Shown one piece after another: positions 8,352-64,000 of a DNA stretch of 64,000 nucleotides. Under the pieces are notes generated by a model, which ran no database searches, was not told where the DNA came from, and worked only from the letters and a program-made list of their open reading frames with translations. Position numbers and translations under genes: made by a program. The stretch comes from Candidatus Gottesmanbacteria bacterium (GTDB taxonomy: Bacteria > Patescibacteriota > Microgenomatia > UBA10105 > UBA927), in NCBI GenBank assembly GCA_016218255.1, contig JACREN010000037.1, positions 1,514 through 65,513 of the forward strand. The letters run 5' to 3'. Numbering within the stretch: the stretch's first letter is position 1; each line of letters starts with the position of its first letter.

Positions 8352-8356
8352 TTTTT

Positions 8357-31929: not shown

Positions 31930-33111
31930 ATGCTTCGGAGCCTCAAGTGGCTTTATCATCTTCTTGTTGCCATATGTGCCGCATTGTGGTTTCGTATGCC
32001 GGCCAGAAAGCTTATAGTCGTTGGTGTCACGGGTACTGACGGAAAAACGACTACGACAAGTCTCATTTATGAAATCTTGAAGCTTTCGGGATACAAAGTT
32101 TCAATGATCACCTCAGTGAATGCGGTAATCGCAGGAGTCCCATACGATACTGGTTTTCATGTGACAACACCAACGGCATGGTGGGTGCAGAAGTATCTCC
32201 GAGAGGCAGTTAATCATGGCGATACTCATATGGTTCTTGAAGTGACTTCCCACGGACTTGCTCAAAATAGAGTATTTGGCATATCGTTTGCTGTCGGAGT
32301 TTTGACTAATATTACCCATGAGCATTTAGATTGGCACCGATCGTTTGATGATTACGTAAAAACGAAGTTGATGCTTCTTAAGAGTGCAAGTGCGGCAGTT
32401 CTTAATCGCGATGACGCAGTGATTTATGCCAAGGCGGTTGAACGTCTTCGAAATAAGAAATTGGTGTTATACGCGATACGGAGAGATGCTCTAATTACGC
32501 CAAAAACATATCCGTTTATTACGAAGCTGCCGGGGGAATTTAACCGGTATAATTGCTTGGCTGCATTGGCGGCAACGTATGCTTTAGGAGTTCCCAAGAA
32601 AAAAGCGCTCTCTGCAATTGCGCGTTTTCGCGGTGTGCCGGGAAGAATGGAGGTTATAGTTCGTAAACCATATGTAGTTATTGTCGATTTTGCCCATACA
32701 CCAAATGCACTTATTCAGGCGCTCAGAACCGTTCGGAAATTAGCCAAGAAGCGTCTTATCCATGTATTTGGGAGTGCCGGACTGCGAGATCACAGTAAGC
32801 GCCCACTTATGGGAAAAGCATCCAGTTCGTATGCCGATATAATTGTTCTTACGGAAGAGGACTATCGGACAGAGGATGTAAATATTATTATGGACGAATT
32901 GACAGCAGGGATTGAATCCGGAAAAGAGGTTCACCGTATCGTGAACCGTCAAGAGGCGATTGTATATGCTATGAAGATAGCGCGTCCTGGAGATGTGATT
33001 ATGATAACAGGAAAGGGGCACGAGAAGAGTTTATGCCGAGGTACGACAGAATATCCCTGGAGTGACCAGGAGGAAGTCAGAAAAAATTTACAGCTGCTCG
33101 TAAACACATGA
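31930..33111 (+). CDS. murE: Mur ligase, MurE-like (UDP-MurNAc-L-Ala-D-Glu:diamino acid ligase) lacking the usual N-terminal domain
   Basis: P-loop GVTGTDGKTTTTS lies only ~30 aa from the start, preceded by a hydrophobic segment (LKWLYHLLVAICAALWF). Central and C-terminal Mur ligase domains are present. A longer upstream ORF would overlap ftsI by 185 nt and is rejected. Confidence 0.8.
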   Translation: MLRSLKWLYHLLVAICAALWFRMPARKLIVVGVTGTDGKTTTTSLIYEILKLSGYKVSMITSVNAVIAGVPYDTGFHVTTPTAWWVQKYLREAVNHGDTHMVLEVTSHGLAQNRVFGISFAVGVLTNITHEHLDWHRSFDDYVKTKLMLLKSASAAVLNRDDAVIYAKAVERLRNKKLVLYAIRRDALITPKTYPFITKLPGEFNRYNCLAALAATYALGVPKKKALSAIARFRGVPGRMEVIVRKPYVVIVDFAHTPNALIQALRTVRKLAKKRLIHVFGSAGLRDHSKRPLMGKASSSYADIIVLTEEDYRTEDVNIIMDELTAGIESGKEVHRIVNRQEAIVYAMKIARPGDVIMITGKGHEKSLCRGTTEYPWSDQEEVRKNLQLLVNT

Positions 33112-33854
33112 CGCAAATAAATTATCCGTACTATACATCAAAACTGCTCTCTTCTGTGCCGGGCTTAATACATGGATTTTCTACGAAAAGAATGGGCGAC
33201 ATGAGAAACCGAAAGGCGAGAAAATTATTTCTTTCGCAGTTGTCTGTTCGCGATATATTTCTTTCTATGGCCGAACAGGTGCATGGTACATCAATCACCA
33301 TTCTTGAAAGTTTAGATGTTGTGACTGATACTAAGGCTGTCGGATCTGACGGTATCGTGTCGAAAGCAATCATGAAAAATGATACCCACCATGTATTAGG
33401 TGTGCGCGTGGCGGATTGTGTGCCAATAATAGCCGTGGATCCAGAAGCCAGAGTTATTGGTGTGGCTCATGCTGGATGGAAGGGCACCATTGGGGGGATA
33501 TCGGGAACGTTACTCAAGTCTATGAAGAAGGTTGGCGCAAAGATGGATCGAGTTTTAGTTTGGGTTGGTCCTCACATCGAGAAATGTTGCTATAGCGTTT
33601 CTTATGATAGAGCATTGAGATTTGTGCAGGCGTTTCATGGAAATCCAACTATTGCATCAAAAATTGGGGCTACCTGGCATGTGGATATCGGCAATGCAAA
33701 TGTGATCCAGTTAACGAATATGGGTGTTCGACCGGATAATATCGACATGCTTTCCGCGTGCACCCGTTGTCAGGCTGATGACTTTTTTTCATATAGAAGA
33801 GATTCAAAGAATTCCTTTGGGGAAATGCTTGGAGTTGTTGGATTCCGTGAATAA
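33108..33854 (+). CDS. pgeF: purine nucleoside phosphorylase/laccase-domain protein YfiH (PgeF family)
   Basis: VADCVPII…GVAHAGWKGT is the DUF152/PgeF signature. Confidence 0.8.
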   Translation: MTQINYPYYTSKLLSSVPGLIHGFSTKRMGDMRNRKARKLFLSQLSVRDIFLSMAEQVHGTSITILESLDVVTDTKAVGSDGIVSKAIMKNDTHHVLGVRVADCVPIIAVDPEARVIGVAHAGWKGTIGGISGTLLKSMKKVGAKMDRVLVWVGPHIEKCCYSVSYDRALRFVQAFHGNPTIASKIGATWHVDIGNANVIQLTNMGVRPDNIDMLSACTRCQADDFFSYRRDSKNSFGEMLGVVGFRE

Positions 33855-39634: not shown

Positions 39635-41094
39635 ACTCATTGCTTGACGTAATTTTAGTGATTTGGTGGTTTCGCATCGTCGCGAATATCGCCTCGTGCA
39701 TACAATTGTGGTATATAAAAGAATACCGTATCGATCGCATGTTGGTCCATCTCAAAACAGAAGAGGGCAAAGGCGTTCTGTGGATGGATTTTCGGAGGCC
39801 AAGAATATCTCCAAAGACGATCGTATTGGGTATAAGCTGTGCACTGGCGGTTTACACGCTATATAGTTCTCTTTCGATTCATCCATTGTTGCGGTTGTTT
39901 GTCATAGACTGCCTTACGTTTCCAATAGTTTCGGTTTTAGTCTTGCTATTTCAAGTTCCCACACACCTATATCATGAAATTATCATCGCGAGGGCCGATG
40001 CGAAAATCCGAAACCACGCACCGCTTGTAGTAATCGGCATCACCGGAAGCTATGGGAAGACTTCTATTAAAGAATTTCTTTCTGTTATTCTCTCTTCCCA
40101 ATATCGGATCCTCAAAACTGAATCCAGCAAAAACTCAGCTATCGCGGTCGCTGAGACGGTTATAACAAAACTTCTTCCGGATCATGAGATGTTTGTGGTC
40201 GAAATGGCAGCATATAAAAAGGGCGAAATCGCGCGTATCGCCGCGATGGTACACCCATCGGTTGCGATAGTCGGTCCTATAAATGCGCAACATCAGGACC
40301 TTTTCGGTTCGATGGAAGAGACTGTGCGTGCGAAGTATGAGCTCGTTGAGGCATTGCCGAATAATCAGATAGTGGTAATGAATGCAGATAATGCATATAC
40401 GAGATCGATGGGTGAAATGGCAGCTCGTCATGGTAAAACTGTATGGTGGTATACGACAAAAAATTGGTCAATTCCTAAGACAGGCGCAATTTTTCGGGCA
40501 GAGCATATACAGACTGATGAGCGACAAATAGCGTGTATTATTAGTTTTAGAAGGGAACGCGAAAAAATTGCTGTTCAGATATTGGGAGAGCACCAAGCCG
40601 GTAACATAGTGGCAAGTATTGCCGGTGCCGTGGCTGCAGGTATGAAGTTTTCGGATGCTGCGCGTGCAGCATGCCGGATTAGACCGTTTACAAAAACGAT
40701 GCAACCCGTATTGGGAGTAAACGGCGCTGCTTTCATCGATGACACATTTAATAACAATCCGGATGCTGCGCTAGCGGCAATAGAATACCTTAGGGGGAGG
40801 AAGGGCAGAAAAATTTTAGTATTTCAGCCTATGATTGAATTGGGAAAATATGGTGAGGCAAGTCATTTTGATGTCGGGAGGGCAGCAGGATCCGTTTGTG
40901 ACGATATTTTATTAACGAACCGGAATTATTTCGATTCGTTTGTGGGCGGTGCTCGAAGCGTGAAGGCATCGAAAAAAGTACGCGTGCTATCGCCAAGCAA
41001 AGCTGCGGGGTATATCCGGTCCAGAATCGGGCCCAATGACACAGTATTATTTAAGGGTAAAGAGGCGGAACGCGTTTTGGGTAAACTTATATGA
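39631..41094 (+). CDS. murF: MurF-like Mur ligase (UDP-MurNAc-tripeptide--D-Ala-D-Ala ligase) with the N-terminal domain replaced by ~3 transmembrane helices
   Basis: P-loop GITGSYGKTS at ~aa 137. EMAAYKKGEI and VMNADNA motifs match MurF. The first 120 aa are hydrophobic segments. Confidence 0.8.
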   Translation: MNSLLDVILVIWWFRIVANIASCIQLWYIKEYRIDRMLVHLKTEEGKGVLWMDFRRPRISPKTIVLGISCALAVYTLYSSLSIHPLLRLFVIDCLTFPIVSVLVLLFQVPTHLYHEIIIARADAKIRNHAPLVVIGITGSYGKTSIKEFLSVILSSQYRILKTESSKNSAIAVAETVITKLLPDHEMFVVEMAAYKKGEIARIAAMVHPSVAIVGPINAQHQDLFGSMEETVRAKYELVEALPNNQIVVMNADNAYTRSMGEMAARHGKTVWWYTTKNWSIPKTGAIFRAEHIQTDERQIACIISFRREREKIAVQILGEHQAGNIVASIAGAVAAGMKFSDAARAACRIRPFTKTMQPVLGVNGAAFIDDTFNNNPDAALAAIEYLRGRKGRKILVFQPMIELGKYGEASHFDVGRAAGSVCDDILLTNRNYFDSFVGGARSVKASKKVRVLSPSKAAGYIRSRIGPNDTVLFKGKEAERVLGKLI

Positions 41095-42308
41095 TTTCCT
41101 GTTCATTATCACCCAATACCGAGACGGATGATGTTTGGTTGGCTCTAAAAGTAATGCTTAGTCCAGGTATATGGAAGAAGGGATCATTCATTGATGAAGC
41201 TGAGCGGTGGTTCTCTGATTATTTTAGAGATTCTGAGGCGGTATCTTTTAATAGCGGCAGATCAGCTCTGTTAGGCATATTGAAGGCTTTTAATATTGGC
41301 CAGGGCGACGAAGTTCTTGTTCAGGCATTTACTTGTGTGGCCGTACCCAACAGCGTGCTTTGGGCTGGAGCAAAGCCGGTTTTTGTGGATATTGACGAAA
41401 CGCTCAATGTAGATGTTCAGGATGCGCGGTCAAAAATATCTTCCAAAACAAAAGCACTCATTGTCCAGCATACCTTTGGTTCGCCCGCTGATATGAAGCA
41501 GTTGACCATATTTGCAAAAAAACATGGTATTTTTTTGATCGAAGATTGCGCACATAGCCTGGGAGCGCTATATAATGGCAAAAAAGTTGGATCCTTTGGA
41601 GATGCATCTTTTTTTAGTTTTGGAAGAGACAAGGTAATATCCAGCGTTTGGGGTGGGATGGGGGTTATACGAGCAAAACACAAAGCTCAGTGCCGTGCAT
41701 TGCGCACATACCAACGCCAATTGCCAATACCGTCTTTATTTTGGATATTTCAGCAGCTGTTTCATCCAATCGCCTTCTCTGTTATTCTAGCGTCGTACAA
41801 TATATGGTTAGGAAAAATATTATTATTCGGCATGCAAAAATTTCATTTGTTATCGTTTCCGGTATATTCGGATGAGAAAAAGAGCAAACGGCCGGCAGGT
41901 TTCCCAGCTATTTTTCCCAATGCGCTCGCTATTCTTGCGCTGAATCAGCTGAAAAAGCTTGATAGGTATAATCGCGGTCGGCGCGCCGTTGCTGCATATT
42001 TCCGCAAGCGATTATATCGTGATACGATATTGCCTGATGTCGGAGGATCGATATATCTTCGATTCCCATTTGTTGTGAATAATCCTAGTGCATTGATTGA
42101 GCGAGCTAAGAAGCATGGGGTGCTTTTTGGTAATTGGTATCAGCATATAATCGATCCGGCTGGAGTGTCGTTTTTTGCGCTTGGATATAAGATCGGATCG
42201 TGTCCGCGCGCAGAATACATTGCGTCTCGTATAGTGAATTTACCAACCAGAGTATCTTTGACAGATGCAGCGAAAATTGTTTCATTATGTCTCAATAAGT
42301 CATTATGA
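41091..42308 (+). CDS. DegT/DnrJ/EryC1/StrS-family PLP-dependent aminotransferase
   Basis: SGRSALLGILKAFN…FSFGRDKVIS (PLP-Lys region). Fold type I sugar aminotransferase pattern. Confidence 0.8.
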   Translation: MISCSLSPNTETDDVWLALKVMLSPGIWKKGSFIDEAERWFSDYFRDSEAVSFNSGRSALLGILKAFNIGQGDEVLVQAFTCVAVPNSVLWAGAKPVFVDIDETLNVDVQDARSKISSKTKALIVQHTFGSPADMKQLTIFAKKHGIFLIEDCAHSLGALYNGKKVGSFGDASFFSFGRDKVISSVWGGMGVIRAKHKAQCRALRTYQRQLPIPSLFWIFQQLFHPIAFSVILASYNIWLGKILLFGMQKFHLLSFPVYSDEKKSKRPAGFPAIFPNALAILALNQLKKLDRYNRGRRAVAAYFRKRLYRDTILPDVGGSIYLRFPFVVNNPSALIERAKKHGVLFGNWYQHIIDPAGVSFFALGYKIGSCPRAEYIASRIVNLPTRVSLTDAAKIVSLCLNKSL

Positions 42309-43195
42309 CACAATATAAACAAAAAGCGGTTTGGGTATCTCATTCGTCTATGGGCGATTATTTGCGTTGCCCCCGTTCGTATTACCTGCGCAATGTATAT
42401 CGTGACCAACGAAACAATCATCGCATGACACTTATGCAACCTGCACTTGCGCTTGGGCAGGTAGTTCATGAAGTCATAGAGGCACTTTCTATTTTACCTG
42501 TGGAAGAGCGTCTCAATCGTCCACTTCTTGATGAATTTGATAATATTTGGTTGCAAATATCAGGTGAAAAGGGAGGGTTTGCGGATTTAGAGGAAGAAAA
42601 AATATATAAGGATCGGGGCAGAAGCATGATGGCTAGAGTACAGGCGCATCCAGGACCCATTGGGCGAAAGGCCACGAAGATTAGGGATCCTCTGCCTAAT
42701 TTCCTTTTGTCTGAAGAGGATAATATTATACTTTGCGGAAAAATTGACTGGTTGGAATATGATGAAATAACCGACAGCATTTACGTTCTTGATTTTAAAA
42801 CCGGAAAGATGGATGAAAGGCCGGATTCACTGCAGCTTCCGATTTATTATCTTTTGGCTTCCGCATGTCAAAAAAGACCTGTTATAGGCTTGCGTTATTG
42901 GTATATAGACAGAGATGATAATCCCGTGGATATGCCTTTGCCGGATAAAGTGGAAGGAAAGAATCGGATTTTGGAAGTTGCCCGAAGTATTGCACTCGCC
43001 CGTAAGTTGGATAGATTTCTCTGTCGGAGCAAAGACGGCTGCAGCGCATGCAGACCCATGGAGGCGATTATCGCCGGAAAGGGGAAGTTTGTCGGCGAAA
43101 GCGAATTTCATCAGGATATTTATATTCTGCCGTCTCCGCACGAGCGTCCTGTTGCAATTTCTGAATCGAGGAGACCGGACGATCTGCCTTTTTAA
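42305..43195 (+). CDS. PD-(D/E)XK nuclease with Cas4/AddB-type Fe-S Cys ligands
   Basis: N-terminal Cys (LRCP). IDW…LDFKTGK core. QLPIYY (RecB-family QhxxY). C-terminal CRSKDGCSAC (C-x6-C-x2-C). Confidence 0.6.
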   Translation: MTQYKQKAVWVSHSSMGDYLRCPRSYYLRNVYRDQRNNHRMTLMQPALALGQVVHEVIEALSILPVEERLNRPLLDEFDNIWLQISGEKGGFADLEEEKIYKDRGRSMMARVQAHPGPIGRKATKIRDPLPNFLLSEEDNIILCGKIDWLEYDEITDSIYVLDFKTGKMDERPDSLQLPIYYLLASACQKRPVIGLRYWYIDRDDNPVDMPLPDKVEGKNRILEVARSIALARKLDRFLCRSKDGCSACRPMEAIIAGKGKFVGESEFHQDIYILPSPHERPVAISESRRPDDLPF

Positions 43196-43196
43196 T

Positions 43197-44213
43197 ATGT
43201 TTATGAGATGTGAGATGAGGGAAATTCAGAATAAAGAACTTTGGGAGAGCTTTCTTCTTTCGCACTCTCCGGCATCTCTGTTTCAGAGTTGGCCTTGGGG
43301 CGAGGTGCAAAGAAGGCAGGGTATCTGTGTTTGGCGGTATGGTGTGTTTGAGGAAGGTCGTTTATCGGGTATCGTGCAAGTAAGCAAGATTTGTGCGAAA
43401 AGAGGATGGTTTCTGCATGTACGTCATGGTCCGATTATCGGACACAGTCAGAGCCATCTGTGGCAGTTTGTTATGGATTGGTTAGCGGATAAGGCCAGAA
43501 AAGAGCGCTGCTGGTTTGTGAGAATAAATCCACTAGTAGAGGACAATTCTTTTTATAGAACCTTGTTTTCTTCTTTGTGTTTATTACGTGCGGCAATTCA
43601 TGCAATGGATGGTGAATACTGTTGGGTATTAGATCTTGATCGCTCCACTGACGAGATTTTGGCGGATATGCGAAAATCAACGCGCTATGAGATTAGAAGA
43701 AGTGAAAAAATGGCAATTGAGGTGGTCCGTTCAGATAAAGCAAAAGATCTTGCATGGTTTATGTCATTATACAAAAAAACGTCTCTGCGTCATGAGTTTG
43801 TTCCCCACCAGGGGATTGGTGAGGAATTTAGCATTTTCGCACGAAATGGTCAAGCGCAGCTCTATTTGGCACGTTTTGGTGGCGAGGTATTGGCGGGTGC
43901 CTTAATCCTGTGGTACGGCGATCAGGCCATTTATCATCATGGAGCTTCTGTGACAAGTCGAGTACCTGCATCATATGCAATACAGTGGCAGGCTATACTT
44001 GATGCAAAAAAACGAGGAATTAAGTTATACAATTTTTGGGGAATAGCGCCAGAAGACAATATTAATCATCCTTGGAGAGGAATAACTTTATTCAAAAAGG
44101 GATTTGGAGGGCGTATTAGCGAGTACATTCATGCGCATGATTTACCTGTTTCGCCTTTTTACCAATTATCTCGCGGTGTGGAGACTATACGAAGAATTCG
44201 TAAAGGATATTAA
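43197..44213 (+). CDS. FemAB-family peptidoglycan aminoacyl (peptidyl) transferase
   Basis: LFQSWPWGEV and the tandem GNAT-like FemX architecture. ~338 aa. Confidence 0.7.
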   Translation: MFMRCEMREIQNKELWESFLLSHSPASLFQSWPWGEVQRRQGICVWRYGVFEEGRLSGIVQVSKICAKRGWFLHVRHGPIIGHSQSHLWQFVMDWLADKARKERCWFVRINPLVEDNSFYRTLFSSLCLLRAAIHAMDGEYCWVLDLDRSTDEILADMRKSTRYEIRRSEKMAIEVVRSDKAKDLAWFMSLYKKTSLRHEFVPHQGIGEEFSIFARNGQAQLYLARFGGEVLAGALILWYGDQAIYHHGASVTSRVPASYAIQWQAILDAKKRGIKLYNFWGIAPEDNINHPWRGITLFKKGFGGRISEYIHAHDLPVSPFYQLSRGVETIRRIRKGY

Positions 44214-44269: not shown

Positions 44270-44650
44270 ATGAGAGAATTACTTCGAAAACATCATATTT
44301 CATTCAAAAATGCTATTGCAGGAATTCTATGGGCAGTTCGTACACAGCCCAACTTCCGTATTCATATTATTTGTTCAATCGCGGTTTTATGCTCGGCTTG
44401 GTATTTTGAGGTATCGCGAACAGAGGTGGCCTTGCTTGTATTTGCTATCGTTCTGGGGTTAGGCGCAGAAATGATAAATACGGCTTTGGAGTCTATGACA
44501 GATCTCATAACAAAAGAATGGCGCAATGAAGCAAAAATAGCAAAAGATGTTGCTGCCGGTATGATGCTGCTTGTTGCCGTTGGCGCCGTACTGGTGGGAT
44601 TGGTTATTTTGGTGCCGTACGCATCTTCCCGATTTGGGTGGAGTCAATAG
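44270..44650 (+). CDS. dgkA: diacylglycerol/undecaprenol kinase (DgkA family)
   Basis: Three transmembrane helices. GAEMINTALESMTDL catalytic motif. Confidence 0.85.
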   Translation: MRELLRKHHISFKNAIAGILWAVRTQPNFRIHIICSIAVLCSAWYFEVSRTEVALLVFAIVLGLGAEMINTALESMTDLITKEWRNEAKIAKDVAAGMMLLVAVGAVLVGLVILVPYASSRFGWSQ

Positions 44651-44654
44651 CATT

Positions 44655-45701
44655 ATGGGATTTCTTCTTGGCGTTTTATTGTTTTCCTGGTTTGTGAGCA
44701 GTCTCTTGTATATTCCGTTTATTCAGTTGCTTTATCGGTGGCGGTTCCAGCGGTTGCGTCAAAAAACGAGAGACGCGTTTGATCAGCGGACGCCTATTTT
44801 TGACAGATTTCATAAAAATAAAGCCGGCACACCAGTTGGCGGCGGATTACTAATCATAGCGCTGACAACCATACTATTTCCTCTGATACTTCTACTTATG
44901 AAATATTTTTGGATTCCGGTTACAGCAGTTTATCCGATGCGCAGTGAAATTAAGATAGTGCTTTTCTCATTCGTCTCATTCGGCTTACTTGGACTGCTGG
45001 ACGATATGAAAAAGACGTTTATGTGGGCAAAATCTGGTTTTTTTGGATTGCGTCTCCGTCATAAATTGCTATTGGAAATCATTTTGGCCGTTCTTGTGAG
45101 CTTTTGGATGGTGCATGAGTTGAAGATCGATATCTTTTACATTCCTTTTGTTGGGGTCATCCAGATGGGGTTATGGTATATCCCCTTTGCGGCATTGGTG
45201 ATTATTGCGTTTGCCAATGCTTTTAATATAACAGATGGGCTCGATGGGTTAGCTTCCGGAATACTTATGATTGCGCTTGCCGCATTTTGGTTTATCTCCG
45301 CATCTATTCTTGATACACCTCTTTCCGTTTTTATCGTATTGTGGCTAGGGTCATTGATAGCATTTTTGTACTTTAACGTATTTCCTGCTCGTATTTTTTT
45401 GGGTGACGTCGGGGCCCTTTCTTTTGGTGCAACTCTTGCCGTAGTAGGATTAATACTTGGGAAAGCGCCTGTTCTTGCCGTGATTGGGGCAATATTCGTC
45501 TTTGAAGTTACATCATCGCTCCTTCAATTGCTTTCGAGGAAGTTTTTGGGAAGAAAAATTTTTGCTGCGGCCCCATTACACCTTTGGCTTCAGTTTAAGG
45601 GTTGGTCTGAACCGAAAATTGTCATGCGATTCTGGGTACTTTCAATTGTATTTGCGATATTCGGTTTATGGATCGCGTTTTTGACCCGGCAGCCCATGTA
45701 A
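44655..45701 (+). CDS. mraY: phospho-N-acetylmuramoyl-pentapeptide transferase
   Basis: LLDDMKK and NAFNITDGLDGLASG motifs. 10 transmembrane helices. Confidence 0.9.
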   Translation: MGFLLGVLLFSWFVSSLLYIPFIQLLYRWRFQRLRQKTRDAFDQRTPIFDRFHKNKAGTPVGGGLLIIALTTILFPLILLLMKYFWIPVTAVYPMRSEIKIVLFSFVSFGLLGLLDDMKKTFMWAKSGFFGLRLRHKLLLEIILAVLVSFWMVHELKIDIFYIPFVGVIQMGLWYIPFAALVIIAFANAFNITDGLDGLASGILMIALAAFWFISASILDTPLSVFIVLWLGSLIAFLYFNVFPARIFLGDVGALSFGATLAVVGLILGKAPVLAVIGAIFVFEVTSSLLQLLSRKFLGRKIFAAAPLHLWLQFKGWSEPKIVMRFWVLSIVFAIFGLWIAFLTRQPM

Positions 45702-45706
45702 TCGAT

Positions 45707-47056
45707 ATGCAAAAACCTCATGATGCATTGTTTGAATTCTTGAGCTATGCGGTGAATAGGGGGACAGATGAGATCTCATTTTTCTACCGCGTAGACCTAG
45801 GTGAGAAAACTATACGATTTACGGAGACGATTGGTATACCTGGTCTGGCCTCAAGATTAGATACCGTTCCTGGTGAATTAACGAGGCGAGTTTTGGAATC
45901 GCTGCAATTGATGCTGGGGATAAGCTACTGGAAAATTTATTGTCCTAGAAATATACGGACAGGAGTCATAAAGCTTTCCAAGTCGCAAGCTCAATTTTGG
46001 AATACAGTATATACGAAGGGCTTGGGGGAATTTTTTTACCGGAATAGTATTGACCCGCGTGGTCTAATTCAATTTCCTTATGATGTCAAAACGCGCTCCA
46101 CAAAGGGTCCGCTTTTGTCTGTGGCTGGAAGTATTCTCCAGCTTGGAGGGGGAAAAGATTCGGTGGTCACTGGTGAGCTTCTAAAAGAATGTAATATGCC
46201 GTTTGTTCCAGTCAGCTTAAATACAAGTGCTGTACAGAGAGAGGTTGCGGGCGTGATGGGTAAGTCAGTCTTGGATGTGACAAGGGTCATCGATCCGGAT
46301 CTCTTTGTGCTAAATAAAGGAATAGGCGTATACAATGGTCATATTCCGATTTCAGCCGTCTACGCGTTTGTGGATGTGCTGGTAGCCGTTTTATACGGAT
46401 ACCAATATATTATTGCCTCAAACGAAGAAAGCGCAAATTTTGGAAACATCCTCTACCATGGAGAAGAAATAAACCATCAGTGGAGTAAATCGTGGGAATT
46501 TGAACAATTGTTTCAGCAGTATATTATTGATAATCTGACACCAAGCATATCCTATTTTTCAATGCTTCGGCCGCTTAAAGAGGCCGCTATTGTAAAGATG
46601 TTTGTGCGTTACAAACAGTATTTTTCCGTTTTTACCAGCTGTAATGCGAACTTTCGTATTAATTATCCTCAGATCGGGTCGCGGTGGTGTGGAGAATGCC
46701 CCAAGTGTGCATTTGTTTTTTTGCTGCTGTCGGCATTTATGGCAAAAAATGAAGTTTTCAATATATTTCAAAAGAATTTATTTTCAGATTCAGGATTATT
46801 TTCTCTTTATGAGGAATTATTGGGATTAGCGCGGTTTAAGCCTTTTGAGTGTGTTGGGACGCCGGAGGAATCACAGTGGGCTTTTTGGCGAGTGATGGAG
46901 AATCATGAGTACGACACGGATGCAATTGTGAAACTACTTCGGAATGCGTTGCCGTTTCGCGTGAACGATATGAATATGTTGGAGAAAGAACTGTTTGAAA
47001 AGCGGGGAGTTCACGCAATACCCAAATCATTTGCTTCAGTACTTTCCAGATTATGA
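45707..47056 (+). CDS. uncharacterised PP-loop ATP-pyrophosphatase-like protein with a QueC-like Cys cluster (candidate peptidoglycan-precursor-modifying enzyme)
   Basis: GGGKDS (SGGxDS variant) at ~aa 157. WCGECPKC at the C-terminal side. 449 aa. ATGA overlap with murD. Confidence 0.5.
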   Translation: MQKPHDALFEFLSYAVNRGTDEISFFYRVDLGEKTIRFTETIGIPGLASRLDTVPGELTRRVLESLQLMLGISYWKIYCPRNIRTGVIKLSKSQAQFWNTVYTKGLGEFFYRNSIDPRGLIQFPYDVKTRSTKGPLLSVAGSILQLGGGKDSVVTGELLKECNMPFVPVSLNTSAVQREVAGVMGKSVLDVTRVIDPDLFVLNKGIGVYNGHIPISAVYAFVDVLVAVLYGYQYIIASNEESANFGNILYHGEEINHQWSKSWEFEQLFQQYIIDNLTPSISYFSMLRPLKEAAIVKMFVRYKQYFSVFTSCNANFRINYPQIGSRWCGECPKCAFVFLLLSAFMAKNEVFNIFQKNLFSDSGLFSLYEELLGLARFKPFECVGTPEESQWAFWRVMENHEYDTDAIVKLLRNALPFRVNDMNMLEKELFEKRGVHAIPKSFASVLSRL

Positions 47057-48291
47057 CCATAGCATCACTTCAGAAATATAGACGGATTCTCATACTTGGT
47101 TTTGGAAGTGAAGGGAAATCGAGTGAGGCATTTCTGCGGACCCATGTGCCCCACGCTCTAATCGACTCGGCAGATATGAAAAGCGATCCGAATTATTTAT
47201 CAAGGCAGAATCAGTACGATTTGATCATAAAAACGCCCGGAATTCCAAAAAATAAAGTGACTCGGCCTTATACGACTGCCACAAATATATTTTTTGCAAA
47301 TGCGAAAGGAATGATTATCGGGGTAACTGGATCAAAGGGCAAAAGCACGACAGCATCGCTGATCTACACGATTCTAAAGACGGATGGAAGATCTGTTCAT
47401 CTGGTCGGTAATATCGGAAAGCCTGCTCTTGATGTAATTCAGGCCGGAAATAATCCGGATGCCGTCTATGTATACGAGCTTTCCAGTTATCAACTTGATG
47501 ACATAAAATATTCGCCACATATAGCTGTGATGACTAATTTTTTTCCAGAGCACATGGATTACCACGGTAGCGTAGCGGCATATTGGGAGGCGAAAAAGAA
47601 AATAATCGCCTATGCTACAGAATCCGACTATTTAGTGTATCATCCTCGTTATCCTGAGTTAACCGAATTAGCCCGGAGTTGTCCTGCAAAAGCAAGCCCA
47701 GCAGAAATACATATACCCATTGATGATCATGACATTCCATTGATTGGTCAGCACAACAAAGAAAATATTCAGCTTGCTGTGACTGTCGCAAAAATTTTAA
47801 GAATTGGAGACGAAACAGTCGGGCGTGCTATCCGTGCGTTTATTCCTCTGCCACATCGATTGCAGTGTATAGGTGTATATAAAGGTATAACATTTTATGA
47901 TGATGCGATATCCACAACGCCTCAATCAACTCTCAGAGCCCTAGAGGCGTTTCCTCATGTTGGTTCCATCCTTCTGGGTGGACAGAATAGGGGGTATGAT
48001 TTTAGCGAGTTGGCCAGAGAAATTGCGCGTCGTAAAATACAAGTCCTCGTTTTGTTTCCAGATAGCGGGGATGCGATTTCTGATGCGCTTGCAGCGATGA
48101 AGTACGTGCCGAGGATGGTACTGAAAACATCTGATATGGCTTCTGCCGTGAAGTTTGTTTATCGTCATGCGCCGCGTGATTCAGTCTGTTTGCTTTCTAC
48201 AGCTTCTCCGAGTTACAGTGTATGGAAAAATTTTGAAGAAAAAGGTTCAATTTTTCAGAAATACGTTAAAATATTTGGTGAAGAGTTATGA
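47053..48291 (+). CDS. murD: UDP-N-acetylmuramoylalanine--glutamate ligase (MurD family)
   Basis: N-terminal Rossmann RILILGFGSEGKS. P-loop GVTGSKGKSTT. Mur ligase domains. Confidence 0.85.
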   Translation: MTIASLQKYRRILILGFGSEGKSSEAFLRTHVPHALIDSADMKSDPNYLSRQNQYDLIIKTPGIPKNKVTRPYTTATNIFFANAKGMIIGVTGSKGKSTTASLIYTILKTDGRSVHLVGNIGKPALDVIQAGNNPDAVYVYELSSYQLDDIKYSPHIAVMTNFFPEHMDYHGSVAAYWEAKKKIIAYATESDYLVYHPRYPELTELARSCPAKASPAEIHIPIDDHDIPLIGQHNKENIQLAVTVAKILRIGDETVGRAIRAFIPLPHRLQCIGVYKGITFYDDAISTTPQSTLRALEAFPHVGSILLGGQNRGYDFSELAREIARRKIQVLVLFPDSGDAISDALAAMKYVPRMVLKTSDMASAVKFVYRHAPRDSVCLLSTASPSYSVWKNFEEKGSIFQKYVKIFGEEL

Positions 48292-49385
48292 AATTATTTC
48301 GGATGAAGCAAATAAGGCATGCGGACTGGTGGTTGATTGTAGGCGTGGTGCTTATGGCGGCGTTCGGATTGGTTATGGTTTATGATTCTTCAGTCGCCAT
48401 TGCCCTGCGAGATTTTTCCAATCAGTATTATTTTGTGCGGGAACAGGCAAAATGGTTGGCGATTGGCGGCATGGCGTGTTTTATATTTTCGGTGGTAGAT
48501 TATCATGTTTGGCAGAAATTAGCCTTGCCTTTGCTTCTTGTTACCATAGGGCTATTACTTATTGTATTCGTCCCTGGTGTTGGTATCCATGCATTGGGAG
48601 CCCGAAGATGGATAAACATGGGTTTTTTTGTATTACAGCCTGCCGAACTTGCTAAATTGGTATTGGTTATGTATTTATCAGCCTGGTTCAGTCAGCCTGA
48701 AAAAAAACGGTTTGGCGCATTTTTACTTCTTGTTTCTGTTGTGGCGGGATTGGTTCTTGTAGAGCCGGATTTGGGAACAAGTGTCATCATTTTGGGCATA
48801 GCGCTTGCACTTTATTTTTTTTCGGGAGCCCCTGCGTATCAATTTCTATTATTGTTTCCGGTAACACTGGTTATGCTCGTTAGTTTAGCGGTGGCTTCTC
48901 CCTATAGATTTCGGCGGTTGACTACTTTTTTAAACCCTGATATTGATCCTCAGGGAGCTTCGTATCAGATTCGTCAAATATTAATTGGACTTGGAAGCGG
49001 AGGATTGTTTGGCGTTGGACTAGGAAGATCGAGACAGAAATATGAATACCTGCCGGAGGCAAATACTGATTCAATATTTGCTATTATTGGCGAAGAAATC
49101 GGATTTGTCGGTGCTCTCGTTGTAATTGTTATGTTTCTATTCATTGTTTGGCGTGGATTTCGTATTGCCAAGCTCGCACCTGATGTCTTTGGTCGCATGT
49201 TGGCTTTGGGTATATCTTCCTGGATAGCAATACAGTCAGGGATAAATTTGTCTTCTGCCGTTGCTCTCATACCTTTTACTGGTGTACCGTTACCTTTGAT
49301 ATCATATGGCGGTTCTAGTTTGATTATATTGCTTTCCGCACTGGGGATTCTATTAAATATCAGTCGGCAGAGGCAGCGGGTATGA
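48288..49385 (+). CDS. ftsW: SEDS-family peptidoglycan glycosyltransferase FtsW
   Basis: 10 transmembrane helices. Matches the FtsW/RodA family. It sits in the murD-ftsW-murG position. Confidence 0.85.
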   Translation: MKLFRMKQIRHADWWLIVGVVLMAAFGLVMVYDSSVAIALRDFSNQYYFVREQAKWLAIGGMACFIFSVVDYHVWQKLALPLLLVTIGLLLIVFVPGVGIHALGARRWINMGFFVLQPAELAKLVLVMYLSAWFSQPEKKRFGAFLLLVSVVAGLVLVEPDLGTSVIILGIALALYFFSGAPAYQFLLLFPVTLVMLVSLAVASPYRFRRLTTFLNPDIDPQGASYQIRQILIGLGSGGLFGVGLGRSRQKYEYLPEANTDSIFAIIGEEIGFVGALVVIVMFLFIVWRGFRIAKLAPDVFGRMLALGISSWIAIQSGINLSSAVALIPFTGVPLPLISYGGSSLIILLSALGILLNISRQRQRV

Positions 49386-55404: not shown

Positions 55405-58233
55405 ATGAACACGCTAAGAGTAAATAATTTTCAGCAGAAACTCGATATTCCGAAAGCGGAACATGAAGTATTGGCCTATTGGGATGAAACGAATGCGTTT
55501 GAAAAATCTGTAGAGCAAAGGCCCGAGGATAAGCGGTACGTGTTTTATGATGGTCCCCCGTTTGCGACTGGGCTTCCTCATTACGGCCATATCCTTGCAT
55601 CGACAATAAAAGACGTTATTCCACGATACTGGACCATGAAGGGATATCGAGTCGAGCGGGTATGGGGATGGGATTGCCACGGAGTACCAATAGAAAACAT
55701 GATTGAGAAAGAGTTGGAGCTGAAAGGCGGAAAAAAAGGTATTGAAGAGCTTGGTATCGACAAATTTAATAGAGCGTGCCGATCGGCTATACTTCGATTT
55801 GATAAAGAGTGGGAAAAGATAATCCGCAGAATCGGCCGTTGGGTGGACTTCAAGAATTCGTACAAAACCATGGACAAAGACTATATGGAGTCTGTCTGGT
55901 GGGCTTTTAAAACGATGTATGAGAAGGGGTTTGTATATCAGGGAAGAAAAGTAATTCTGTATTGTCCTCGCTGTGCAACGCCCCTCTCCAATTTTGAAAT
56001 CGCCATGGACAATAGTTATAAGGACGTAGAAGATAACTCCGTTTTTGTAAAGTTCAAAGTCAAGGAAAAACAGAATGAGTATCTGATAGCCTGGACGACG
56101 ACGCCCTGGACTCTAATCGGTAATGTAGGACTGGCGGTAGACGCAAAAGCAGAATACGTACTGGTCAGAATAGAAAACGCGCATTATTGGATTGCAAAAT
56201 CACGCAAGGATGCAGTGCTTGGTGATATTGGAGTTGTCGAAAAAACTGTGGTCGGGTCGGCATTGGATGGTATTTCATATGAGCCCCTGTATACATATAT
56301 GCCCCTTGATGGAAAAAAAGCGCATTATGTGGCCGTGGCCGATTTTGTGTCTCTCGCTGATGGGACGGGCATCGTGCACACGGCAGCAATTTTTGGAGAA
56401 GACGATTATCGGTTAGCTGTGGAAAAGGATTTGCCGCGGGTGCCTACGCTAGACGAACAAGGAAAGTTTTTGGATTTTATCACTCCTCTAGCCGGCGTGT
56501 ATTATAAAAAATCTGAAACCTGGATTATGGGAGATTTAATAAAGCGGGGCTTCATGTATCGCGCAGAAAAAATTATCCATTCATATCCCTTTTGCTATCG
56601 TTGCGAGACGCCTCTCTATTATAACGCGGTTCCCGCTTGGTTTATTGATGTCCAAAAAATGAAAAGAGATTTATGCCAACAGAATGAGAATATCCATTGG
56701 TATCCGGATCATTTGAAGCATGGTCGATTTGGCAACGGGCTCTCTACTGCGCCGGATTGGAATATTTCGCGGTCGCGTTATTGGGGGACGCCGATGCCGG
56801 TATGGCAGAGTGTTGATGGCAAAACAAAACTTATTGGTTCACTCGCTGAACTAAAACAGTGGGCGGTCGATCCGGAAAAGGTTGATACTCTTACTGATAT
56901 TCACCGGGAGTTTCTTGATGATATAGAGGTGTGGATGGATGACGCAAAAACTATCAAGGGCAGAAGAATTCCTGAAGTTTTTGACTGTTGGGTGGAATCT
57001 GGTAGTATGCCCTACGCCTCGATTCATTACCCGTTCGCCAACAGGGATGTGTTTGAAAAAAGCCATCCGGCGCAATTTATTGCAGAATATATCGCACAAA
57101 CTCGTGCCTGGTTTTATACGTTGCACGTTATGTCCGTTGGACTTTTTGGCAAGTATACGTTTGAAAATGCGGTGACAACCGGTACTATTCTGGCAGAAGA
57201 TGGGACAAAGATGAGCAAATCGAAGAAAAATTATCCTGATCCCGCTTTACTATTTGAGCAATACGGTGTTGATGCATTGAGGTTCTATCTTATGGGTTCG
57301 GTCGTTATGAAAGCAGAGAATTTGAATTTTTCTGAATCTCAGGTTCGGGAAACATATCAAAAATTGATATCCACCGTATGGAATGTCTTTAGTTTTTATA
57401 AGCTCTATGCAGGTAATGCTGTACCAGGAGATGATGTGCCTGAGCCGGCGCACGTGTTGGATCGTTGGATCGTCGGTCAGACAGAATCGCTTATTTTAGA
57501 AGTTACTACCGCCCTGAATGTATATGACACTGCGTCTGCCTGTAGGGTAATTTTGGATTTTGTTACAGAACTTTCTACGTGGTACCTGCGAAGGAGCCGT
57601 GATCGTCTGAAGAATGATGAACTCGCCGTGTCCGTTTTTGGCTGGGTATTGATTCAGTTGGTGAAAGTAATGGCACCCTTGACGCCCTTTATAACCGAGC
57701 GCATTTATCAGAATTTAAAGGGTGATATGTCCGTTCATCTGACTACGTGGCCAGGAGCACGATTAAGCTCCGAAGCAAAAAACTCCACGCTGAATGACAA
57801 TATGCTGCTTGTTCGGCAGATTTGTGAACTTGGTCATGCGGCCAGAAAGGAAAAAGGTATTAAAGTACGGCAGCCGCTCCGTAGCTGTCAGCTGTCTGTT
57901 GTCAGCGGTCAGCTTGATGAAGAATTGCTTGCGCTCGTTAGAGAAGAGCTCAACGTTAAGAGTGTCGTTGTGCAAAAGGGCGATGGGGAGCTTGCCGTAA
58001 CATTGGATACAGATATCACACCTGATCTCGTTGCAGAGGGACAGGCTAGAGAACTCATACGGCAAATTCAAATGCTTCGGCGTGAGAAAGGGTGTAAAAT
58101 AGATGAGCGCATTAGTGTTCAGCTTCCCAATATATATGAAGGGTTACCTAAAGAACTGGCATCTATTATTCAAAAAGAGACACTGGCTGATGCTTTGACA
58201 TGGGGAGAGACGCTTTCCATTTTGACTGGTTAA
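55405..58233 (+). CDS. ileS: isoleucine--tRNA ligase
   Basis: HYGH (PHYGHIL) and KMSKS motifs. Editing (CP1) and anticodon-binding domains. 942 aa. Confidence 0.95.
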   Translation: MNTLRVNNFQQKLDIPKAEHEVLAYWDETNAFEKSVEQRPEDKRYVFYDGPPFATGLPHYGHILASTIKDVIPRYWTMKGYRVERVWGWDCHGVPIENMIEKELELKGGKKGIEELGIDKFNRACRSAILRFDKEWEKIIRRIGRWVDFKNSYKTMDKDYMESVWWAFKTMYEKGFVYQGRKVILYCPRCATPLSNFEIAMDNSYKDVEDNSVFVKFKVKEKQNEYLIAWTTTPWTLIGNVGLAVDAKAEYVLVRIENAHYWIAKSRKDAVLGDIGVVEKTVVGSALDGISYEPLYTYMPLDGKKAHYVAVADFVSLADGTGIVHTAAIFGEDDYRLAVEKDLPRVPTLDEQGKFLDFITPLAGVYYKKSETWIMGDLIKRGFMYRAEKIIHSYPFCYRCETPLYYNAVPAWFIDVQKMKRDLCQQNENIHWYPDHLKHGRFGNGLSTAPDWNISRSRYWGTPMPVWQSVDGKTKLIGSLAELKQWAVDPEKVDTLTDIHREFLDDIEVWMDDAKTIKGRRIPEVFDCWVESGSMPYASIHYPFANRDVFEKSHPAQFIAEYIAQTRAWFYTLHVMSVGLFGKYTFENAVTTGTILAEDGTKMSKSKKNYPDPALLFEQYGVDALRFYLMGSVVMKAENLNFSESQVRETYQKLISTVWNVFSFYKLYAGNAVPGDDVPEPAHVLDRWIVGQTESLILEVTTALNVYDTASACRVILDFVTELSTWYLRRSRDRLKNDELAVSVFGWVLIQLVKVMAPLTPFITERIYQNLKGDMSVHLTTWPGARLSSEAKNSTLNDNMLLVRQICELGHAARKEKGIKVRQPLRSCQLSVVSGQLDEELLALVREELNVKSVVVQKGDGELAVTLDTDITPDLVAEGQARELIRQIQMLRREKGCKIDERISVQLPNIYEGLPKELASIIQKETLADALTWGETLSILTG

Positions 58234-59282
58234 CTGCACTATTATTGTTAGGCATCGGTTCGTTTGGACTTTTTATCCTCCTAACCATTGATAGATATCT
58301 TTTTTCTCAACAACTTGTGTATTTGGTTGCGGCAAGTATCATATTGGTCGTCGTTTCCAAAATTGACCGGGCGATACTGTGGTGGTTTGCTCCTGTTGGC
58401 TATATCATTGCGATACTTCTCGTTTTGTTGCCGTTTTTTGGTCCGAGCATTCGCGGAAGCCATCGCTGGATATTTGTTGGTGGTGTGCAACTGCTTCAGC
58501 CTTCGGAAATCATAAAACCGCTTCTTCTTCTTGCATTTGCGAGAACCATGGCGTCATTTTCGCCACGGAATATCCGAAATGTCCCACTGTTGATGATAGT
58601 ATTTATTATTCCTTTCTTGTTGGTATTCAGGCAACCAGATCTGGGGACATCGTTGGTTTATGGCGGTATGTGGTTAACCATGCTGGTGGCGTCCGGCGTA
58701 TCCATAATCTTGCTTGGGGCCGCGAGTGGAGGTATGGCGCTGCTGGCACCGATGCTGTGGCAACTCCTGGCCGCATATCAGAAGGCACGCATAACGACAT
58801 TTTTGAATCCCGCATTGGATCCTCGGGGCGCAGGATATAACGCGGTGCAGGCGGTGATTGCTGTGGGAAGCGGACAATTTTTTGGAAGAGGTTTGGGGCG
58901 AGGCACTCAGAGCCATTTACGTTTTTTGCCAGAATTTCATACTGATTTTATCTTTGCGACTCTTGTGGAGGAGCTGGGATTTTTGGGTGGAGTAGCGCTG
59001 TTATTGTGTTACGCATTTCTCTTATGGCGCATTATTGCGCCTCTCGTGCGTGGACGTGTACAGGACATATTTCATTTTGCCTATGCTGTAGGACTTTTTG
59101 CTATGCTTCTGGTTCAGATATTTATTAATGCTGGGATGAATATGGGTATCATACCGGTTACAGGAATCACACTGCCCTTCGTATCGTATGGAGGCAGTTC
59201 ACTTCTTTCCATCGCAATATCATTTGGCATTTTGTGGTCGCTTGCGCGTGAAAAGCGAGTTGGTGTGATTGCAATCCATTGA
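58200..59282 (+). CDS. SEDS-family peptidoglycan glycosyltransferase (RodA/FtsW paralog)
   Basis: N-terminus DAFHFDWLTALLLLGIGSFGLF. 10 transmembrane helices. C-terminal SEDS motifs. ATG 58200 overlaps the ileS 3' end by 34 nt. Confidence 0.8.
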   Translation: MGRDAFHFDWLTALLLLGIGSFGLFILLTIDRYLFSQQLVYLVAASIILVVVSKIDRAILWWFAPVGYIIAILLVLLPFFGPSIRGSHRWIFVGGVQLLQPSEIIKPLLLLAFARTMASFSPRNIRNVPLLMIVFIIPFLLVFRQPDLGTSLVYGGMWLTMLVASGVSIILLGAASGGMALLAPMLWQLLAAYQKARITTFLNPALDPRGAGYNAVQAVIAVGSGQFFGRGLGRGTQSHLRFLPEFHTDFIFATLVEELGFLGGVALLLCYAFLLWRIIAPLVRGRVQDIFHFAYAVGLFAMLLVQIFINAGMNMGIIPVTGITLPFVSYGGSSLLSIAISFGILWSLAREKRVGVIAIH

Positions 59283-62574: not shown

Positions 62575-64000
62575 TCAGAGAGCTTCCCGAAATAGTAGCT
62601 GGGAAAGATAAAAGAATATTTTTGCCTCAGCAAGTGATCCTCCGCTGCGAGCCGCTTCAGCCTGACTGCGATATTCCTGAGCGCTTTGAAAGCGTCTGGC
62701 TCTGATTCCGATGGATTCTCCACGTCCTGTAGCAGCTGTAAGAATTCTGGTCAGATTTGAATCATAGGAAGCTGTGCTTGCAGAAAATCTGTTTGTTTCC
62801 GAAAGGGGGAAGAGCGATGTTTGGGCTCCCAATGCATACTTATAAAGGTAGGCTATCTTTTCTGAGATTTGGAGAGAGGCCTGAATAGTATTTTCTGTGT
62901 TTTGGGTTTTGCGATAGATGGATAATTGCGTGATGCTTTGTTCAAGATTTGTTTTTGCTATTGCATGCCGTCCGATAGCGATGGCTGATCTGGCAAGCGC
63001 TAACGATCGGCGGGCGGCAGTCAGAGAGTTGTGATTTGTCAGATTAAGAATAAGTTGGTTGATCTCATCGAACTTTTGGGTGGTCGTCGTGGCGACGGAC
63101 GCCTCAGTCAAAAGGGTGTTTGCGGTAACTGATATGCTATATATCTTTTGTGCACCGGGTGTAATGGTGCCGGTATATTCTTTCCAGGTGTTTGCACTGT
63201 CGGTAAATTGCGCGGCAATGAGGGTATACGGTCCGGCTCCGGTACCGGTGAGCTTCACATCGTACGTACCGGTGTCGGGACTTGGTATGAAGACGATGCC
63301 ATCCGGCCCGTCATGGGTAGTGCCGTTATGCGTTACCTGAAGAGAAACAGGAGAGCGGACGAGAAACAGAAGACCGGGCGTGACGGAAGTCGGGCTACCT
63401 GCAACGATGTCTGCATCAGTGTGCGCAATAGCGAGAATATCCAGTATTGCATCAATGCTGTCGCTTGCCGCAATGGTGTTTTTGTGATTTTGGCTGACTG
63501 ATGTGCCGGTATCGCCGGTCAGTTTTGCGCGAAAAAGAGTGACAAGATTATCTCCTTCGGTTGTCGTTTCTGCAGTTACAGGTTTGCCGTCAGTCCAATT
63601 GCCGAGCGCTGTGTCGATCCATGAGGGATCCGAGACAACATACCCGTTGATAGTAGAAAATGTCGTGCCGGTGAGGGCGTCAAGTAGTGGAAACGTTGCA
63701 CTTGCGCTTGTGTTCAAATCAGATAGCCATGTGTTTGTGAATGACATGGTCGCCGGATCAATGAGCTGGTTGTCTGATTGTCTGCGTAGGTATGCAGCCA
63801 GTGGGAGAAGATTCTGTATAACCGGAAGACTGGACCGAATAGTTTCGCGATTCGTTGCGAATGATCGGCGGTTGAGTTGTAAAACCAACCGTTCTCCTAG
63901 CCAAAGAAGAGAATTGTCCTGAGGCAGGTCGCCAGCTGACCAGGCGGGATATGCAATTGCTGCACCCTGATTGGGTGTTCCGGCCGTGATAAGGTGCTTT
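62575..64000 (-). CDS. Thr/Ser/Ala-rich hypothetical secreted/surface protein; partial, N-terminus beyond the window end
   Basis: Minus-strand frame is open from 64000 down to the stop at 62575-62577. Low-complexity T/S/A-rich composition. No recognisable catalytic motif. Plus-strand ORFs 63059-63922 are antisense artefacts of it. Confidence 0.5.
   Translation of the reverse strand, partial: KHLITAGTPNQGAAIAYPAWSAGDLPQDNSLLWLGERLVLQLNRRSFATNRETIRSSLPVIQNLLPLAAYLRRQSDNQLIDPATMSFTNTWLSDLNTSASATFPLLDALTGTTFSTINGYVVSDPSWIDTALGNWTDGKPVTAETTTEGDNLVTLFRAKLTGDTGTSVSQNHKNTIAASDSIDAILDILAIAHTDADIVAGSPTSVTPGLLFLVRSPVSLQVTHNGTTHDGPDGIVFIPSPDTGTYDVKLTGTGAGPYTLIAAQFTDSANTWKEYTGTITPGAQKIYSISVTANTLLTEASVATTTTQKFDEINQLILNLTNHNSLTAARRSLALARSAIAIGRHAIAKTNLEQSITQLSIYRKTQNTENTIQASLQISEKIAYLYKYALGAQTSLFPLSETNRFSASTASYDSNLTRILTAATGRGESIGIRARRFQSAQEYRSQAEAARSGGSLAEAKIFFYLSQLLFREAL

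Follow-up and report, generated by a model that had tools for sequence, protein, structure and literature searches.

What does a 449-amino-acid (aa) open reading frame (ORF) between mraY and murD contribute to the cell wall pathway of a Candidatus Gottesmanbacteria bacterium? The ORF lies in a 64,000-nucleotide stretch of a metagenome-assembled genome (this whole stretch is called the window below). An earlier note on this DNA singled it out for its GGGKDS and CGECPKC motifs, for a stop codon overlapping the murD start as ATGA, and for its position inside a block of mur and fts genes, all of which direct reading of the sequence and profile matches of the neighboring genes bear out. Two functions had been suggested there: an epimerase partnered with a MurD2-type ligase, as in Xanthomonas, or an adenosine triphosphate (ATP)-dependent amidation of a stem-peptide carboxylate. 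We find that the ORF is probably the Patescibacteria counterpart of MurL and that the overlapping "murD" probably encodes a MurD2-type ligase, the two together forming an alternative route that would place D-glutamate (D-Glu) in peptidoglycan without free D-Glu. Judging from the sequence evidence below, we put the probability of this reading at roughly 0.85.

Neither the enzyme pair nor its reaction is new. MurL (XOO_1319) and MurD2 (XOO_1320) of Xanthomonas oryzae were found by complementing a D-Glu auxotroph, and MurL converts the terminal L-glutamate (L-Glu) to D-Glu in one direction only, using one ATP and forming adenosine monophosphate (AMP) (PMC8788868, PMC5808125). Micromonospora and Salinispora orthologues were also assayed, according to what these two papers relay of Feng et al. 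(2017). Adenylation of the alpha-carboxylate has been proposed for MurL, whose mechanism its discoverers call unclear, and the published distribution of the enzyme comprises some Gammaproteobacteria, a few Alphaproteobacteria, and rare actinobacteria (PMC8788868, PMC5808125). MurL has been reported to be without known domains, and the MurL/MurD2 route has been described as limited to relatively few genera. This restricted occurrence is why the pathway has been put forward as a target for narrow-spectrum antibiotics (PMC8788868). The gene in the window is a MurL homologue and not an undescribed enzyme, so that of the undescribed precursor-tailoring step "in this lineage" suggested earlier only the quoted words are defensible: for Patescibacteria or the candidate phyla radiation, we found no relevant report on either MurL or glutamate racemase in the searchable literature.

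The profile comparison with the MurL family that the earlier note had proposed gave a full-length match to the NCBIfam family NF041275, "MurL_Xanthmoales" (UDP-N-acetyl-alpha-D-muramoyl-L-alanyl-L-glutamate epimerase; EC 5.1.1.23), in which residues 7 to 446 of the window protein align with model positions 8 to 443 of 447 (E value = 1.3e-109, 366.7 bits). Because the match is to a curated family at this E value, the ORF is confirmed as real rather than a product of chance; a pseudogene reading was also considered and rejected. A Xanthomonas sacchari record in which an annotated murL adjoins murD, in the same gene order as in the window, was located by tblastn of the plasmid collection, and its MurL is 35% identical to the window protein over 437 aa (E value = 2e-86). 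The two proteins have the motifs GGGKDS, NGHIP, SNExSA, NHQWSK, SSCNxNF, WCGxCPKC, and KPFECVG in common. The X. sacchari R1 record itself (NZ_CP010410.1, 508,653 bp), on which murL and murD are found together with ssb and a gene for a bifunctional aspartate kinase/diaminopimelate decarboxylase, is labeled a plasmid; it may be a piece of the chromosome or a chromid.

Public annotation of the window protein is sparse. No Pfam family matched it at E values up to 0.01, and this blank is a trait of the library copy, which is without a MurL model, because genuine Xanthomonas MurL was unmatched as well; the newer families PF26298 and PF26299 are listed for all homologues in the protein collection. 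Solved structures related by sequence were absent even at E values up to 10. GenBank lists the gene as HY948_04090, a 462-aa "hypothetical protein" on a 67,964-bp contig, a label explained by the fact that NF041275 is named for and tuned to Xanthomonadales and that the window protein scores under its cut-off. The Joint Genome Institute (JGI) pipeline already names several close metagenome homologues as this epimerase. The deposited version starts at an upstream ATG (position 45668) that overlaps the end of mraY, and no record of the exact 449-aa product was found. The start that we use, 5 nucleotides (nt) after the mraY stop, fits the N termini in an alignment of 28 Patescibacteria homologues that are 44 to 64% identical to the window protein.

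The overlapping ligase gene speaks more directly to the substrate. Near the glutamate site, E. coli MurD and X. oryzae MurD2 differ at D182/E197, K348/R358, A414/P433, and L416/F435, and a K319T replacement lets E. coli MurD gain L-Glu use (PMC8788868). In the account of Feng et al. given in the same paper, the double reversion E197D/R358K turns MurD2 to D-Glu use. We aligned E. coli MurD, the window MurD, 67 partner MurDs of related loci, and X. sacchari MurD2, numbering E. coli residues from the one after Met1, and took the residues of four control chains from the Protein Data Bank, all canonical D-Glu MurDs with solved structures, from pairwise alignments. At positions 182/319/348/414/416, E. 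coli MurD has D/K/K/A/L, X. sacchari MurD2 has E/I/R/P/F, and the window MurD has E/I/R/P/Y. The controls have T/K/R/A/W (Streptococcus agalactiae, 3lk7), D/K/K/A/L (Pseudomonas aeruginosa, 7sy9), D/K/K/A/F (chain 7sir), and D/K/K/A/F (Thermotoga maritima, 4buc, with position 348 uncertain). The mapping is validated by the X. sacchari residues, which equal the published states.

The window MurD is thus in the MurD2 state at all five positions, with Tyr for Phe at 416. Canonical controls have Asp or Thr at 182 and Ala at 414 throughout, and position 319 is Lys in all canonical D-Glu MurDs examined, against Ile in the window protein and in Xanthomonas MurD2. Positions 182, 319, and 414 are therefore the ones that discriminate; Arg348 and an aromatic residue at 416 are weaker markers. 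Among the 67 partner MurDs, 46 have the full EIRPY signature and a further 9 have DIRPY. We conclude that the window ligase probably prefers L-Glu, as far as diagnostic residues can tell. The TIGR01087 "murD" model also accepts Xanthomonas MurD2 (nt 7310 to 8746 of locus L083; 298 bits, cut-off 212), which its record names a D-glutamate ligase. Since both that enzyme and the window ligase pass the model, the D-Glu label is misleading, and L-Glu ligases seem to be misannotated systematically in this way.

Linkage to murD was followed across related genomes. When one genome per species was scanned, at least 590 genomes had a relative of the window protein, and the best 80 loci were analyzed by ORF calling and BLAST. 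Apart from a few records whose other labels look wrong, they are assigned to many Patescibacteria lineages, among them Roizman-, Levy-, Woese-, Moran-, Uhr-, Falkow-, Staskawicz-, Taylor-, and Kerfeldbacteria, Saccharibacteria, Peregrinibacteria/Peribacteria, Gracilibacteria, and Absconditabacterales, and all 80 have a Patescibacteria-style gene arrangement. A single ORF of about 770 to 906 aa with MurL at the N terminus and MurD at the C terminus was found at 34 loci (two more are cut at a contig end); one such fusion, checked by hidden Markov model (HMM), has MurL at residues 4 to 415 and MurD at residues 441 to 830. Separate, adjacent murL and murD genes occur at 33 loci, at 15 of which they overlap by 4 nt just as in the window, and the genes are adjacent at 5 more when long ORF starts are allowed for. 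At 3 loci murD lies 0.5 to 3.4 kb downstream of murL, 4 end at a contig edge, and the arrangement is unclear at 1 (Absconditabacterales, with an alternative genetic code). In total, murL is fused or directly adjacent to murD at 72 of the 76 informative loci (34 fusions and 38 adjacent pairs), so the synteny with mur genes, whose loss had been named as grounds for abandoning the idea, is retained. The order mraY-murL-murD-ftsW-murG seen in the window is repeated in several related loci. Repeated fusion of MurL to MurD is strong independent evidence that the two proteins catalyze consecutive steps.

The family as a whole comprises at least 3,764 clusters at 90% identity. At 50% identity it has 2,576 representatives, 1,221 of them with E values of 1e-30 or lower; 17 of the best 150 have the length of a fusion. 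Two groups of loci stand out. In L043, L067, and L080 (Gracilibacteria and Absconditabacterales), ORF calls under translation table 11 place murD 1.3 to 3.4 kb from murL or on the other strand, which may be an artefact of the alternative genetic code or a real difference. Eleven other loci are labeled "uncultured Gammaproteobacteria" (L003, L010, L018, L066, L070, and L075), Weeksellaceae (L004), Bacillota (L016), or Alphaproteobacteria (L069, L078, and L079). All are metagenome assembled, with a MurL 38 to 48% identical to the window protein, a Patescibacteria-style arrangement, and in some cases a fusion, and their taxonomic labels are probably wrong.

How the protein might work was approached through its motifs and a predicted structure. 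Across the 28 homologues, GGGKDS, CGECPKC, C312, and C382 are invariant or nearly so, the family motifs NHQWSK and SSCN are conserved without change, and no loss of these motifs, which would have spoken against a shared function, was seen. An AlphaFold2 model built on this alignment has a mean predicted local distance difference test (pLDDT) of 92.1 and a predicted template modeling score (pTM) of 0.92. Its catalytic domain has a predicted QueC-like fold, the closest fold relatives being QueC and Cap9. Within GGGKDS, which is also present in X. sacchari MurL, G147, G149, K150, D151, and S152 are invariant, and the motif is predicted to bind the ATP phosphates (pyrophosphate). Four cysteines (C312, C328, C331, and C334), all invariant and also present in Xanthomonas MurL, are predicted to form a structural zinc site by analogy with QueC. 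In the C-terminal domain, K378, P379, F380, C382, V383, G384, and T385 are invariant; Xanthomonas MurL has KPFECVG, and KPF[ED]CVG was found in 75 of 78 MurL ORFs of related loci. The MurL-specific N-terminal domain presumably binds the substrate.

QueC is marked by SGGxDS and C(x)8CxxCxxC, and QatC, like Cap9 a QueC-like defense protein, has the cysteine variant C(x)19CGxCxx (PMC13329287). In the window protein both hallmarks take variant forms, GGGKDS and C(x)15CGECPKC; the cysteine pattern of E. coli QueC is C188-x8-CGHCAAC against C312-x15-CGECPKC here. The QueC likeness proposed earlier held for the predicted fold, extended to the PP-loop and cysteine motifs in these variant forms alone, and failed at the level of sequence families, with no match to the QueC family PF06508 and an hhalign probability against E. 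coli QueC of 4.9% (23 columns, the PP-loop opposite SGGQDS being the sole aligned segment). According to the model, then, MurL is QueC-like in fold and motif logic and lies outside PF06508. Two QueC-family papers from 2026, one of them PMC13329287, make no mention of MurL.

This resemblance raises the idea that the protein is itself a QueC-type or tRNA-modifying PP-loop enzyme that landed in a cell wall cluster by accident, and one metagenome homologue has indeed been named "7-cyano-7-deazaguanine synthase" by the JGI. Apart from the fold, little recommends it: the sequence comparisons with QueC just given reach no further than the PP-loop, the protein has the extra N- and C-terminal domains common to MurL, and the linkage to murD, fusions included, is conserved. 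We regard such an origin as extremely improbable, and the conserved synteny and the fusions in effect already refute a role in tRNA modification or QueC chemistry. Enzymes of the QueC type first use ATP to activate a carboxylic acid, which a nucleophile then attacks, and this order fits the AMP-forming adenylation proposed for MurL. The same chemistry lends some color to the amidation suggested in the earlier note by analogy with MurT/GatD or AsnB/LtsA, in which ammonia would attack the adenylate to give iso-glutamine, as QueC and Cap9 go on from the activated carboxylate to an amide with ammonia or an amine. Such an activity would call for a glutaminase domain or partner and, in the case of MurT, a Mur-ligase fold; neither was found, and we consider amidation highly unlikely.

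Several observations weigh against reading the pair as MurL and MurD2. The window protein, at 366.7 bits, is well under the NF041275 equivalog cut-off of 700 set by NCBI, compared with 836.5 for X. sacchari MurL. Two residues of the ligase signature, Arg348 and the aromatic residue at 416, are shared with some D-Glu-specific MurDs, and Asp182 is kept in 12 of the 67 partner MurDs. Overall, the window MurD is 33% identical to Xanthomonas MurD2 and 28% identical to E. coli MurD, and because it is hardly closer to the one than to the other, the signature could be convergent. The activity of the window protein would follow from sequence comparison with assayed enzymes, all known assays being of enzymes from outside Patescibacteria. 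What ties the protein to QueC is its predicted fold together with the motif patterns, since the sequence profile aligns the PP-loop alone.

To these must be added the MurL-like genes on Pseudonocardia plasmids, none of which has a murD neighbor. The gene on pLS1-1 of Pseudonocardia sp. (nt 4965 to 6374 of locus L084) encodes a protein 30% identical to the window protein that scores 300 bits on NF041275, nearly as high as the window protein. These genes keep SGGKDS, NHQWAK, SSCN, WCxxCxKC, and KPLECVG and are surrounded by hypothetical genes; the family therefore has members outside a mur context, and the plasmid proteins are possibly a paralogue acting on another substrate. With such a paralogue at hand and a score under the cut-off, similarity alone does not fix the substrate. 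The window protein could then itself be a MurL-like paralogue that adenylates some other peptide or carboxylate by the same chemistry, next to an ordinary D-Glu ligase. We find this improbable, given the fusion or adjacency to murD at nearly all informative loci and a neighboring MurD with a MurD2 rather than a canonical signature. It is on this partner signature and on the fusions, not on similarity alone, that the assignment as MurL rests.

The supply of D-Glu raises a different objection. No glutamate racemase, D-amino-acid transaminase, or Ddl domain was found among the scanned window ORFs of at least 150 aa, and a tblastn search in all six frames, with E. coli MurI and DdlB as queries, found no match either in the window or across 879 kb of related loci, in keeping with the earlier remark that murI is not in the window. 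This says little, since ddl, which must lie elsewhere in the genome, was not found there either; the absence of murI from 64 kb is weak evidence for the genome as a whole. The ligase might therefore use mainly D-Glu from a MurI encoded elsewhere, with MurL rescuing precursors that have received L-Glu by mistake. A homologue of pgeF, the peptidoglycan editing factor gene, in the same cluster and the partner MurDs with Asp182 would suit such a repair role. It is nonetheless unlikely: the window MurD has the Glu and Arg residues whose reversion returns MurD2 to D-Glu, it is without the Lys319 of canonical MurDs, and a permanent fusion, seen in many lineages, is easier to reconcile with an obligatory two-step route than with occasional repair.

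Under the preferred reading, with MurL and a MurD2-type ligase acting in sequence, MurC would make UDP-N-acetylmuramoyl-L-alanine, and the MurD2-type enzyme would add L-Glu. MurL would bind ATP in its QueC-like PP-loop domain, GGGKDS holding the phosphates and the four cysteines a structural zinc, and would adenylate the alpha-carboxylate of the terminal L-Glu with release of pyrophosphate. The alpha-proton of the acyl-adenylate, or of a derived oxazolone, would be removed and returned from the opposite face, and the reaction would be unidirectional. The base might be one of the invariant residues C382, H212, H257, and E240, and C382 is also a candidate catalytic acid/base or thioester nucleophile. 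MurE, MurF, MraY, and MurG, all encoded in the cluster, would then continue as usual. The ATGA overlap, which may couple translation of the two genes, and the fusion in many relatives would keep the two activities coordinated and let the L-Glu intermediate be epimerized before MurE acts, possibly by channeling between MurL and MurD2. The reaction and the ATP-to-AMP stoichiometry in this scheme are taken by analogy from the Xanthomonas, Micromonospora, and Salinispora enzymes.

Taken further, the evidence suggests that MurL/MurD2 may be a main D-Glu route across Patescibacteria, often as one fused bifunctional protein, and that MurL may be a divergent zinc-binding, QueC-like PP-loop adenylating enzyme; we hold these two statements jointly to be somewhat better than an even bet. 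No paper stating either was found in the searchable literature, nor was a report of the wide distribution in Patescibacteria, the fusions, or the fold assignment. If true, they would provide the first structural basis for the AMP-forming, one-way epimerization by MurL, and the recurrent fusion together with the QueC-like fold offers concrete hypotheses for an enzyme of unclear mechanism. The pathway has been promoted as a narrow target, yet at least 590 reference genomes contain a relative, and it looks far commoner in Patescibacteria than searchable papers report. The annotations deserve correction: the window protein stands in GenBank as "hypothetical", and the D-glutamate ligase name attached to the model that its partner passes is probably wrong, with the situation probably alike in many other Patescibacteria genomes.

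The features of the locus are collected in Table 1. The cluster runs rsmH, ftsI, murE, pgeF, murC, murB, murA, a glmU-like gene, murF, a DegT-type aminotransferase gene, a PD-(D/E)XK protein gene, a FemAB-family gene, dgkA, mraY, the 449-aa ORF, murD, ftsW, murG, ftsQ, ftsA, and ftsZ. The FemAB-family gene hints that the stem peptide has an interpeptide branch; DegT and FemAB genes occupy an equivalent place in related locus L003. The dgkA-mraY arrangement recurs in L002, L018, and L070. Because the longest mraY ORF, which starts with TTG, overlaps dgkA by 80 nt, its real start is probably further downstream. Elsewhere in the window, a second FtsW/RodA-family gene follows ileS, and four large ORFs have no Pfam family, the first three of them inside a glycosyltransferase/sugar-nucleotide cluster in roughly the first 24 kb.

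Table 1. Features of the murL-murD locus and other genes mentioned, in positions of the window
Feature	Position	Strand	Details
murL candidate ORF	45707..47056	+	449 aa; ATG 45707, TGA 47054-47056; read from sequence
MurL N-terminal domain	45707..46120	+	About residues 1-138; three-stranded sheet plus helices; GISYWK, YTKGLGEF conserved; MurL-specific
PP-loop ATP-pyrophosphatase (QueC-like Rossmann) domain	46121..46606	+	About residues 139-300; AlphaFold2 model
PP-loop GGGKDS	46145..46162	+	Residues 147-152; between first strand (139-145) and first helix (150-161) of the domain (model)
Four-Cys motif C312-x15-C328-x2-C331-x2-C334	46640..46708	+	SCN...WCGECPKC; CGECPKC = residues 328-334, nt 46688-46708
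KPFECVGT	46838..46861	+	Residues 378-385; C-terminal helical domain
ATGA overlap	47053..47056	+	Stop of murL candidate over murD ATG 47053-47055; read from sequence
murD (MurD2-type, probable)	47053..48291	+	412 aa; TIGR01087 249 bits (cut-off 212); Pfam Mur_ligase_M and Mur_ligase_C
Diagnostic residue E166	47548-47550		Window MurD
Diagnostic residue I286	47908-47910		Window MurD
Diagnostic residue R313	47989-47991		Window MurD
Diagnostic residue P386	48208-48210		Window MurD
Diagnostic residue Y388	48214-48216		Window MurD
mraY	44571..45701	+	Phospho-MurNAc-pentapeptide transferase; Pfam Glycos_transf_4; TIGR00445 E 3e-51, aligned from residue 79
DgkA-type kinase gene	44270-44650		Directly upstream of mraY; Pfam DAGK_prokar E 2e-30
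Three genes between murF and dgkA/mraY	41091-44213		DegT/DnrJ/EryC1-type aminotransferase, PD-(D/E)XK nuclease-family, FemAB-family peptidyltransferase
pgeF homologue	33108-33854		Between murE and murC; TIGR00726 139 bits (cut-off 141)
ftsW	48288-49385		First FtsW/RodA-family gene
Second FtsW/RodA-family gene	58200-59282
Large ORF	3012-6422		1136 aa
Large ORF	6786-8351		521 aa
Large ORF	13587-16793		1068 aa
Large ORF	62575-63888	-	437 aa

Compared with Xanthomonas MurL, the window protein has the same length and architecture, matches the family HMM from end to end, and keeps every conserved motif, and in both organisms murL lies immediately upstream of, and overlaps, the gene for a MurD2-type ligase. 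The settings differ. In the window the pair occupies the canonical place of murD, between mraY and ftsW in the cell wall cluster, whereas the X. sacchari pair lies outside such a place and adjoins the aspartate kinase/diaminopimelate decarboxylase gene; in Patescibacteria, moreover, the two genes are often fused, and the lineage is not in the distribution published in reviews. The window ligase resembles Xanthomonas MurD2 (EC 6.3.2.53) in having E182, I319, R348, P414, and an aromatic residue at 416 and differs from it at the last position, where Tyr replaces Phe, and in its length (412 versus 478 aa). Relative to QueC (PF06508), the first PP-loop residue is Gly instead of Ser, the cysteine spacing is x15 instead of x8, and large N- and C-terminal domains, common with MurL, are added. 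The substrate of MurL is a UDP-sugar dipeptide and the outcome epimerization and hydrolysis, in contrast to a deazaguanine and amide or nitrile formation for QueC. MurI glutamate racemase serves the same end, D-Glu at position 2 of the stem peptide, but the protein is unrelated, and it works on free glutamate, reversibly and without a cofactor.

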